DNA of 47,142 bases from Escherichia phage 2G7b. Of this stretch, positions 28,117 through 29,341 are shown in pieces (within the stretch, counting starts at the first letter, position 1; every line of letters begins with the position of its first letter). Below the pieces are notes generated by a model. That model was not told the origin of the DNA. It did no database searches and saw nothing but the letters and a program-made list of their open reading frames with translations. The position numbers and the translations under genes were made by a program. The stretch lies in sequence record NC_049954.1, one strand, 5' to 3'.

Positions 28117-28161
28117 ACTTCTAAGTCGTGGGCCGCAGGTTCGAATCCTGCAGGGCGCGCC
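28117..28161 (+). other. attP core: 3' ~45 nt of tRNA-Arg (argU) ending in CCA, not a complete tRNA gene
   Basis: CTTCTAAGTCGTGGGCCGCAGGTTCGAATCCTGCAGGGCGCGCCA matches the anticodon-stem-to-CCA portion of argU; the 5' half of the tRNA is absent; int stop lies 17 nt downstream. Confidence 0.8.
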
Positions 28162-28177
28162 ATTACAATTCAATCAG

Positions 28178-29341
28178 TTACGCCTTCTTTATATCCTCCA
28201 TAATTCCAGAGTGGGACATATTTGGGACATTATCACCAAAAATGTCGTCTATTTTCCTCGCATGCTCTGTCAAATGATTAGGCGCAAGGTGAGCATACCT
28301 ACGAACCATTTCTATGGACTCCCATCCGCCCATTTCCTGAAGCACTGATAATGGGACGCCTGACTGAATCAGCCAGCTTGCCCAGGTGTGTCTGAGGTCA
28401 TGGAAACGGAAATCTTCAATTCCTGCACGACGACAAGCTGATAGCCATGATGTCTTGCTGTCGATGCGCATCTTCCTGACCGCAGGCGTTGATGTTCCAT
28501 CTGCTCGCTTAGCCGCCTTGGTATGTACAAACACCCATTTGTGATGCTTGCCTATTTGATCACGCAACACTTTACAGGCGGTATCGTTCAGCGCCACACC
28601 AATGGCGCGGTTTGATTTGCTCTCTTCTGGATTCACCCAGGCAACTCGTCGCTGCATGTCGATTTGTTGCCATTCCAGATTTATGATGTTCGACTTTCTC
28701 AGACCAGTTGCCAGCGCAAACTTGACGACAGATTTCAGTGGTTCGGGGCACTCATCAATAAGGCGTTTTGCTTCCTCCTTTTCCAGCCATCTGACTCGCT
28801 TGTTTCTGACCGCTGGTATCTTGATGACAGGCGCTTTTTCCAGCCACTTCCAGTCGCGTTCTGCAGCACGGAGAATGGCCTTTATCATGGCAAGATGCTT
28901 TGCCTTTGTCTGAGTTGATACTGGCTTTGGTTCATAAACAGGCGGTTCTTTACCTTTCCTGATGGCGGCCTGAACTTTCTGTTTCCATATTTCTTTCGTC
29001 TTTCTGTTATGCATTCTGCTTACAGCAGAGTAAATCTTTGCCTCCGAGATATCTTTAAGCCTTATACCCTCAAAATGTTCAAGCCAGAACTCAATCCGGC
29101 TTTTATCTGAATCGAGAGATTTTTTATCAGCTTTTTCCTCAAGCCATCTTAGGCAGGCCTCTTCAAAAGTGACATCAGGTAAATCCCCTAGCTTTTCTAC
29201 TCGCCAGAGTTCTGCTTTTCGCTTGTCGTGCAACTCCTGAGCTTGCCGCTTGTCCTTTGTGCCAAGAGATTCCTTAATTCGTTTCCCGCCCGGGAGCGAA
29301 TACGAGGCATACCATATTTCATTTCTGCGGAAGAGTGACAT
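28178..29341 (-). CDS. int: tyrosine integrase (DLP12 IntD-like, argU-specific)
   Basis: 387-aa ORF with C-terminal ..[39 protein letters not shown].. (R..HxxR..Y catalytic motifs); adjacent to tRNA-derived att core. Confidence 0.9.

Follow-up and report, generated by a model that had tools for sequence, protein, structure and literature searches.

Results

The window, by which we mean the whole 47,142-nucleotide stretch of DNA analysed here (Escherichia phage 2G7b, NC_049954.1), carries an integration module beside two cargo genes. Read from left to right, the cargo (25071-27695, minus strand) consists of genes for an alpha/beta hydrolase (25071-26555; Pfam Abhydrolase_1) and for the outer-membrane protease OmpT (26742-27695; Pfam Omptin, E = 1e-130), and adjoins an attP site that extends roughly from 27990 to 28240. 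On the far side of attP lie int (28178-29341, minus strand), which encodes a 387-aa tyrosine integrase of the DLP12/P22 type, and xis (29197-29568, minus strand), which encodes a 123-aa excisionase and overlaps the start of int by 145 nt.

The assignment of Int rests on its Pfam domain and on its identity to intD. The protein matched PF00589 with E = 5.5e-47 and 160.2 bits (cut-off 27.1) over profile positions 1-171 of 172. Residues of the catalytic type were located by motif at R215 (within ATGLR), K242, H314-x-x-R317, W340 and Y349; an alignment to P22 Int shows them conserved, and the HP1 integrase structure 1aih can be aligned over the C-terminal box. Int is thus predicted to carry the R-K-H-R-H/W-Y catalytic set of the tyrosine recombinase/phage integrase family. 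At the DNA level, int is about 99.7% identical to K-12 intD over roughly 1.3 kb, which bears out the DLP12-type integrase proposed for this locus in an earlier reading of the sequence alone (the sequence-only reading). Amino acid identity is 100% to the integrases of Turner and ev243, 99.7% to those of Kati and PhiR34_1, ~87% to those of some Stx phages, ~80% to that of a Salmonella argU-type phage and 73% to P22 Int, and Int is at least 99% identical in 12 phage records. Xis matched the HTH_17 profile (PF12728, E = 1.2e-8) and is 78% identical to P22 Xis over 116 aa; it is full length in the window, whereas K-12 xisD is annotated as a pseudogene.

The core of attP is a partial copy of a host tRNA gene. 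When compared with the 77-nt argU gene of K-12 MG1655, which specifies tRNA-Arg(UCU), the longest exact argU suffix within the window was 45 nt long and lay at 28118-28162 (plus strand), corresponding to argU nt 33-77; an exact match of this length in 47 kb excludes a chance origin. The copy takes in the anticodon loop (CTTCTAA) in full and, from the anticodon stem, its 3' strand; then come the variable loop and the T arm, the 3' strand of the acceptor stem, the discriminator base and CCA. Base 28117 is A in the window and C in argU, and a comparison of the 32 nt to the left of the core with the 5' part of argU found no meaningful similarity. The sequence-only reading had described a 45-nt match from the anticodon stem to CCA next to a DLP12-type int, with the 5' half of the tRNA absent. 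Its length, its CCA end, its neighbour and the missing 5' half all hold, and the match exceeds the limit of ~20 nt that had been named for it, but the match starts at the anticodon loop, at 28118 and not at 28117. The int stop codon (TTA on the plus strand) occupies 28178-28180, which leaves 15 nt after the CCA end at 28162, and the K-12 spacer is likewise 15 nt (argU ends at 564799, intD starts at 564815); the equal spacing had been anticipated correctly, at a value of 17 nt that needs correction in both genomes.

Two further bases (TT, 28163-28164, plus strand) are common to attP and to the flank of the empty attB site, and the alignment with K-12 attR reaches 28164. The attP/attB identity block is thus 47 bp long (28118-28164), and beyond argU the flanks read CCATTTCTT in attB and CCATTACAA in attP. 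This 47-bp identity agrees with the 47-bp argU repeat given for DLP12 (PMC6379469). The stretch 28118-28162 is an att core and not a tRNA gene.

The core is flanked by two conserved arms. The P arm (27990-28117, plus strand) is conserved with the attP sites of Salmonella phage BIS08P22 and of P22 and is collinear with the left arm of K-12 attR; in the alignment with the two phages, the motifs TTTTAAGTCAACAAC.TACCGCG, CTGCGCTCACACGTCCCA and AAACATG.AAAGCCTTGCAAGCC are retained. A motif scan combined with conservation points to GGGAC arm-type candidates at 27993-28001 and 28057-28067, and the scan also gave an IHF-like candidate, AGTCAACAACTTA, at 28086-28098 on the minus strand. The P' arm (28165-28240, plus strand) overlaps the 3' end of int and is near-identical to the right arm of K-12 attL; its outer limit is approximate, set from the ~260-bp attP of P22 (PMC4111918). 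It holds a second IHF-like candidate from the motif scan, ATTCAATCAGTTA at 28168-28180, and at the matching position P22 has a perfect IHF consensus. Farther out lie two direct TGGGACAT arm-type candidates on the plus strand (28212-28219 and 28223-28230); they are the plus-strand reading of ATGTCCCAAATATGTCCCA, which is invariant across the window, BIS08P22 and P22. The four same-strand copies of GGGAC within 351 nt at attP form the densest such cluster in the window, with a Poisson P of about 1e-4 per window for a cluster that was noticed post hoc. The count of TGGGACRT over the whole window was not above chance (4 observed versus 2.7 expected), and solely the clustering at attP and the agreement with P22 carry information. 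We give the arm-type and IHF sites as candidates, assigned by conservation and motif.

The presence of part of a tRNA gene raises the question of whether attP itself contains a complete, functional phage tRNA gene at 28079-28162. Such a gene is annotated in Turner (PP925837.1) as an 84-nt tRNA-Pro at 6391-6474, and those 84 nt are identical to window positions 28079-28162. ARAGORN at the 80% threshold called a "tRNA-Leu(tag)" at 28080-28162, a permissive Rfam search gave a tRNA match of 24.8 bits at attP, and an inverted repeat of 8 nt (ATGGCGCG/CGCGCCAT) might pass for an acceptor stem. However, ARAGORN found no tRNA in the window at its default and 90% thresholds, in line with the expectation of the sequence-only reading that no full tRNA would be called; in intron mode and with lowered thresholds, it made a call at 80% only, with an isotype unlike that in GenBank, and the tools differ in register as well as in isotype. 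The Rfam score lies below the gathering score of 29 and rests on the genuine T arm of the argU copy, and no tRNA reached the gathering score anywhere in the window. The predicted fold lacks an anticodon arm of 5 bp and 7 nt and has a z-score of -1.15, versus -2.24 for argU, which folds as a clean cloverleaf. In the RefSeq annotation of K-12, E28 and SY038, a tRNA is present at attL only and none is given at attP or attR.

The most decisive point comes from P22. The conserved P arm is what would have to serve as the tRNA's 5' half, and P22 carries this arm too, in an attP with a thrW core, where it cannot pair with the thrW acceptor strand. Given that the P arm is kept beside another tRNA core, the tRNA-Pro annotation in Turner is an att-site artefact. 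That tRNA fragments at att sites get called as tRNA genes has been documented (PMC9897764), and we consider a functional tRNA gene at this position very improbable. A covariation test for a pseudo-tRNA on 25 IMG/VR loci was powerless because their P arms are nearly identical, and it was the comparison with BIS08P22 and P22 that settled the question instead. We also considered that the chimera of P arm and argU at attP, still found at attR in all lysogens, K-12 included, might yield a functional tRNA-like RNA of ~84 nt, for example a decoy or a processing substrate. The apparent acceptor pairing is absent in the Salmonella argU-type attP and in P22, and the fold is not unusually stable; we give this idea hardly any credence.

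The arrangement of the site in bacterial chromosomes was examined next to K-12, whose DLP12 prophage occupies argU. The window attP equals the left arm of the DLP12 attR, the core and the right arm of attL. On the left, the K-12 segment from ompT to DLP12's right end is collinear with the window and 97.9% identical over 1428 nt, with the similarity stopping at 28164; on the right, 149 of 150 nt are identical to the phage side of attL. The annotated bounds of DLP12, 564755 and 586056, are the first core base at attL and the base preceding the core at attR, respectively. The left arm and core of the window are thus the same in kind as K-12 attR, and the window could be read as a piece of bacterial chromosome that ends a prophage, with an attR and a displaced argU fragment in place of a free attP. 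This reading is already refuted, given that the core is followed on its right by the phage P' arm and int rather than by the envY-side flank, and that the window runs from cos to cos with no chromosomal genes; we assign it a practically negligible probability.

A hypothetical empty attB was constructed by joining the K-12 sequence left of attL to that right of attR, and this site (argU, TT and the envY flank) was searched in 5426 complete E. coli genomes. It was present in 2532 of the 5426 (in a single place, at a coverage of at least 80%); among the top matches listed, identity to the reconstructed site was 100%, and the annotation there is a tRNA-Arg adjoining envY. In the prophages that were found with a query running from int to the replication genes, similarity sets in at query base 19, equivalent to 28118, where the core begins.

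The lysogen SY038 has the order fimZ, argU (an intact 77-nt tRNA-Arg), intD, early genes, cos, head and tail genes, hydrolase, ompT and envY. It is a single lysogen in which two copies of the 45-nt core lie 48,064 bp apart, with the flanks predicted for attL and attR, and 91% of the permuted window aligned to its prophage, mostly at 97-99% identity. The hydrolase and ompT adjoin attR in lysogens; their order is the same in ev243 and in E. coli lysogens, and at the DLP12 attR of K-12, ompT alone is present. Strain E28 is a tandem double lysogen, with attL, a prophage, an internal attP, a second prophage and attR. A full-length attP-like junction is present in 87 chromosomes, and a tandem arrangement such as that of E28 explains junctions of this kind. 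In two further genomes that were examined, an integrase fragment and another ompT come after a complete prophage; they are the remnant of an earlier occupant. We considered the 87 chromosomes as an objection to site-specific integration and rejected it, given that they can be accounted for by tandem lysogens or by a prophage with an older remnant. The 45-mer was found at 25 loci in IMG/VR, whose contigs show the attL, attR and attP types of junction. Prophages of this type are thus flanked by attL with an intact tRNA gene and by attR with a displaced 3' fragment, and the empty attB exists. The expectation of the sequence-only reading that integration regenerates an intact argU was confirmed in these lysogens, where attL holds the 77-nt tRNA-Arg and attR the displaced 45-nt copy, and the relatives at argU that it had proposed to search for exist in SY038, E28 and K-12, with attL and attR as predicted.

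The ends of the window are those of lambda. The left cohesive end, GGGCGGCGACCT (1-12, plus strand), is the lambda cosN overhang and is followed by a lambda-like cosB/nu1 region, with the first 60 nt of the window identical to lambda (NC_001416) and terS at 190-732, assigned by its protein match to ev243. The right end (47083-47142, plus strand) closes with CGACAGGTTACG, as in lambda; 191 of the last 200 nt are identical, and the last 12 nt are lambda's. In the DLP12 and SY038 prophages, the end of the window is joined directly to its start. These matches argue for lambda cohesive ends at both termini that are contiguous in the prophages, in line with the cos termini that had been suggested for both ends of the window.

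The physical ends of a virion molecule are not deducible from the sequence alone, and related GenBank records are variously permuted (Turner starts in the immunity region, PhiR34_1 at int). The window might then derive from a chromosome assembly, as a prophage cut out of it, or from a circular assembly, and have been set to start at cos by convention, in which case "packaged" would describe an arrangement only. We regard this as unlikely, though less so than the other alternatives weighed here, given that the attP junction is intact and is neither an attL nor an attR, which points to an excised or virion form, that the ends match the mature ends of lambda to the base, and that a length of 47,142 bp, close to the 48,502 bp of lambda, should be packageable. 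The biology of attP reads alike whether the window is virion DNA or a re-oriented assembly.

The gene content is that of a lambda-like phage. Of the 51 ev243 proteins tested, 44 had full-length matches at 83-100% identity. Among these are the head and tail proteins (terminase, portal, protease, D, E, FI, FII, Z, U, V, G, H, M, L, K, I and J) and proteins of recombination, replication and lysis (exo, bet, gam, O, P, Q, holin, lysozyme and Rz). The exceptions are the side tail fibre and tail-fibre assembly proteins, with partial matches, and the immunity region. The lambda-type structural genes that had been noted from the sequence are thereby substantiated, with full-length matches for all such ev243/lambda-type proteins tested and partial ones in the fibre region. 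The two genes at the rexAB position had no PADLOC or Pfam match. Over the whole window, Rfam at gathering thresholds returned the lambda cIII thermoregulator only.

Discussion

Our analysis indicates that the window is, in all probability, the linear genome, from cos to cos, of a lambda-like temperate coliphage that is intact and has a recombination module of the P22/DLP12 type directed at argU. None of the observations speaks against this reading. The components of this module are already known: the same att/int module is carried by DLP12, described in 1989, and by ev243, Turner, Kati and PhiR34_1, and the genome of 2G7b is another mosaic member of this known group.

The closest chromosomal relative is DLP12 of E. 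coli K-12. Lindsey, Mullin and Walker reportedly placed its attL in argU and its attR beyond ompT, and identified intD/xisD, in 1989 (J Bacteriol 171:6197). According to two citing papers, the DLP12/argU site has been in the literature since that year (PMC2629481 and PMC6379469). DLP12 resembles the window in the near-identity of int, in its 45/47-bp core, in both att arms and in the 15-nt spacer, and it is collinear with the window over a block from Q through porin, holin, lysozyme, Rz, bor and cos to nu1 and over a second block from the methyltransferase and tfa to ompT. In total, 10.8 of its 21.3 kb aligned with the window in prophage order, at 83-100% and mostly 91-100% identity. Unlike the window, DLP12 is a defective element without any head or tail genes; it carries IS3 and IS5 insertions and has xis and exo pseudogenes. 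Its cargo also differs (emrE, ybcK-N and appY), and the alpha/beta hydrolase of the window stands at the place of appY in K-12. The sequence-only reading of the window as an intact relative of the defective DLP12 is in keeping with this alignment, given that the virion genes are kept here.

The phages ev243 (Nesevirus ev243, NC_049955.1) and Turner share with the window the order hydrolase-ompT-attP-int and the lambda-type virion genes. By megablast, 85% of the window aligns with ev243, mostly at 95-99% identity. The window differs from this group in its immunity region (cI is 71% identical over part of its length, and rexAB is absent) and in its side tail-fibre region. The window is not covered in full by any deposited phage; the best either cover about 85% of it or are 96-97% identical over parts. 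The similarity to ev243 is about 80% by a rough megablast estimate, which is not a VIRIDIC value, and the ICTV rule for a genus is at least 70%; this comparison suggests that the window belongs to the same genus as ev243 (Nesevirus) but to a different species.

The module itself has counterparts in phages with other virions. Work on the Int, Xis and attP of P22 includes that of Leong (1985) and of Smith-Mungo (1994), both listed in PMC4111918. P22, whose target is thrW, resembles the window in Int and Xis, in its P and P' arms including the GGGAC repeats, and in its IHF-like sites. Its identity with thrW extends over 46 nt (thrW nt 31-76) to CCA, starting one base before the anticodon loop, and relative to the P arm, the thrW block is placed in the register that the argU block has in the window. 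P22 differs from the window in this core (46 nt of thrW versus 45 nt of argU), and the window is otherwise lambda-like, with cos packaging and siphovirus genes. A 43-bp argU attP adjoining a DLP12-like integrase was described in 2008 for epsilon34 (PMC2629481). Like the window, epsilon34 and its relatives (e.g., BIS08P22) use argU as the target, have a DLP12-like Int and carry attP just downstream of int; unlike the window, they have a P22-like virion, and their core is the Salmonella variant of argU, of which, in BIS08P22, only 29 nt match E. coli argU exactly. By these comparisons, the window is predicted to have a P22/DLP12-type module, and its attP identity block extends from the anticodon loop as far as the tRNA's 3' end.

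The position of strand exchange may be placed by analogy. The identity block of the window starts exactly at the anticodon loop, P22 and thrW share this boundary, and in class I tRNA integrases the crossover occurs in the 7-bp anticodon loop (PMC1762012). We infer from this that the 7-bp overlap region is CTTCTAA, the argU anticodon loop, at 28118-28124 (plus strand), and that strand exchange would take place inside it. In the mechanism that we propose, Int, probably together with IHF, would recombine attP with the chromosomal argU. The 5' part of the host gene would be joined to the 3' copy supplied by the phage to give an intact argU at attL, and the 3' part of the host gene, now displaced, would come to lie at attR, beyond ompT. 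Excision would require Int together with the intact P22-like Xis.

Insertion at argU could also be imagined as RecA-dependent homologous recombination through the 47-bp identity of attP and attB, without a role for Int, and insertion is worded in this way in a figure legend of PMC6379469. Against this stand an intact integrase and excisionase that adjoin attP, att arms that are conserved with P22 across phages with different cores, and an identity block that begins precisely at the anticodon loop, as with other class I tRNA integrases. A stretch of 47 bp is, in addition, a poor substrate for RecA. We find this route highly implausible and favor site-specific integration by Int at argU.

In summary, a genome that looks alive confirms that DLP12 is the decayed remnant of a lambda-like phage with a P22-type integrase at argU. 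For this phage family, the att site and the bounds of its prophages can be annotated to the base, with the core block at 28118-28164 and the prophage ordered from int to ompT, and the "tRNA-Pro" in at least one public phage record is to be read as an att-site artefact. The ompT, alpha/beta hydrolase and porin genes travel as cargo of an apparently active phage, and the argU site at which it would integrate is still empty in about half of complete E. coli genomes.

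Results and discussion

The att site of this phage type can be mistaken for a tRNA gene. In the related phage Turner (PP925837.1), positions 6391-6474 are annotated as an 84-nt tRNA-Pro, the counterpart of which is 28079-28162 in the window. We rejected this tRNA-Pro as an annotation artefact composed of the P arm and the 3' fragment of argU. A perfect 8-nt inverted repeat, ATGGCGCG/CGCGCCAT (28077-28084 and 28156-28163), joins the P arm with the acceptor-strand part of the attP core and is the likely source of false tRNA calls. The repeat is absent from the att regions of the Salmonella argU-type phage BIS08P22 and of P22, and its occurrence across attP in the window is therefore probably due to chance.

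Between attP and the tail-fibre region lie two cargo genes (25071-27695, minus strand), one for a 494-aa alpha/beta hydrolase with a TAP-like C-terminus, the other for the outer-membrane protease OmpT. Given this placement on the attP side, ompT of laboratory K-12 is the attR-proximal cargo of this phage type; at the position held here by the hydrolase, K-12 carries appY. A full-length Gram-negative porin gene (43223-44257, minus strand; Porin_1, E = 1.6e-151) is located between Q and the holin gene, a position occupied in DLP12, the defective K-12 prophage at argU, by the IS5-disrupted nmpC.

Two ORFs of 163 aa (35481-35972) and 285 aa (36010-36867; PHROG 23561, unknown function) lie immediately 3' of the cI repressor gene (36961-37662), all on the minus strand, at the position where lambda and the related phage ev243 instead carry rexA/rexB. 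Searches of Pfam and PADLOC returned no matches for either ORF, and the pair is a candidate exclusion or defence cassette expressed from the prophage. The side tail-fibre region (19622-23331, plus strand; proteins of 793 and 345 aa) is the structural segment that diverges most from ev243 and Turner (~61% protein identity, or no matching protein), which suggests that receptor specificity differs from theirs. Across the whole window, the only Rfam match at the gathering threshold was the lambda cIII thermoregulator element (32890-32948, minus strand; 88.5 bits).

E. coli E28 (NZ_CM143889.1, approximately 3694000-3784000) carries a tandem double lysogen at argU, arranged as attL-prophage-internal attP-prophage-attR, with identical protein accessions in both copies. 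In NZ_CP069522.1 and NZ_CP015076.1, a complete argU prophage is followed (locus positions ~7800-12200) by fragments of an integrase gene and of a tail-fibre-assembly gene, together with a methyltransferase gene and a second ompT. This additional block resembles what is left of a prophage that was there before, and it brings the number of ompT copies to two. An attP-like junction of this sort occurs in 87 genomes. Among the 5426 complete E. coli genomes searched, 2532 have argU directly adjoining envY and thus an empty site, which leaves argU available to this phage type in about half of sequenced strains.
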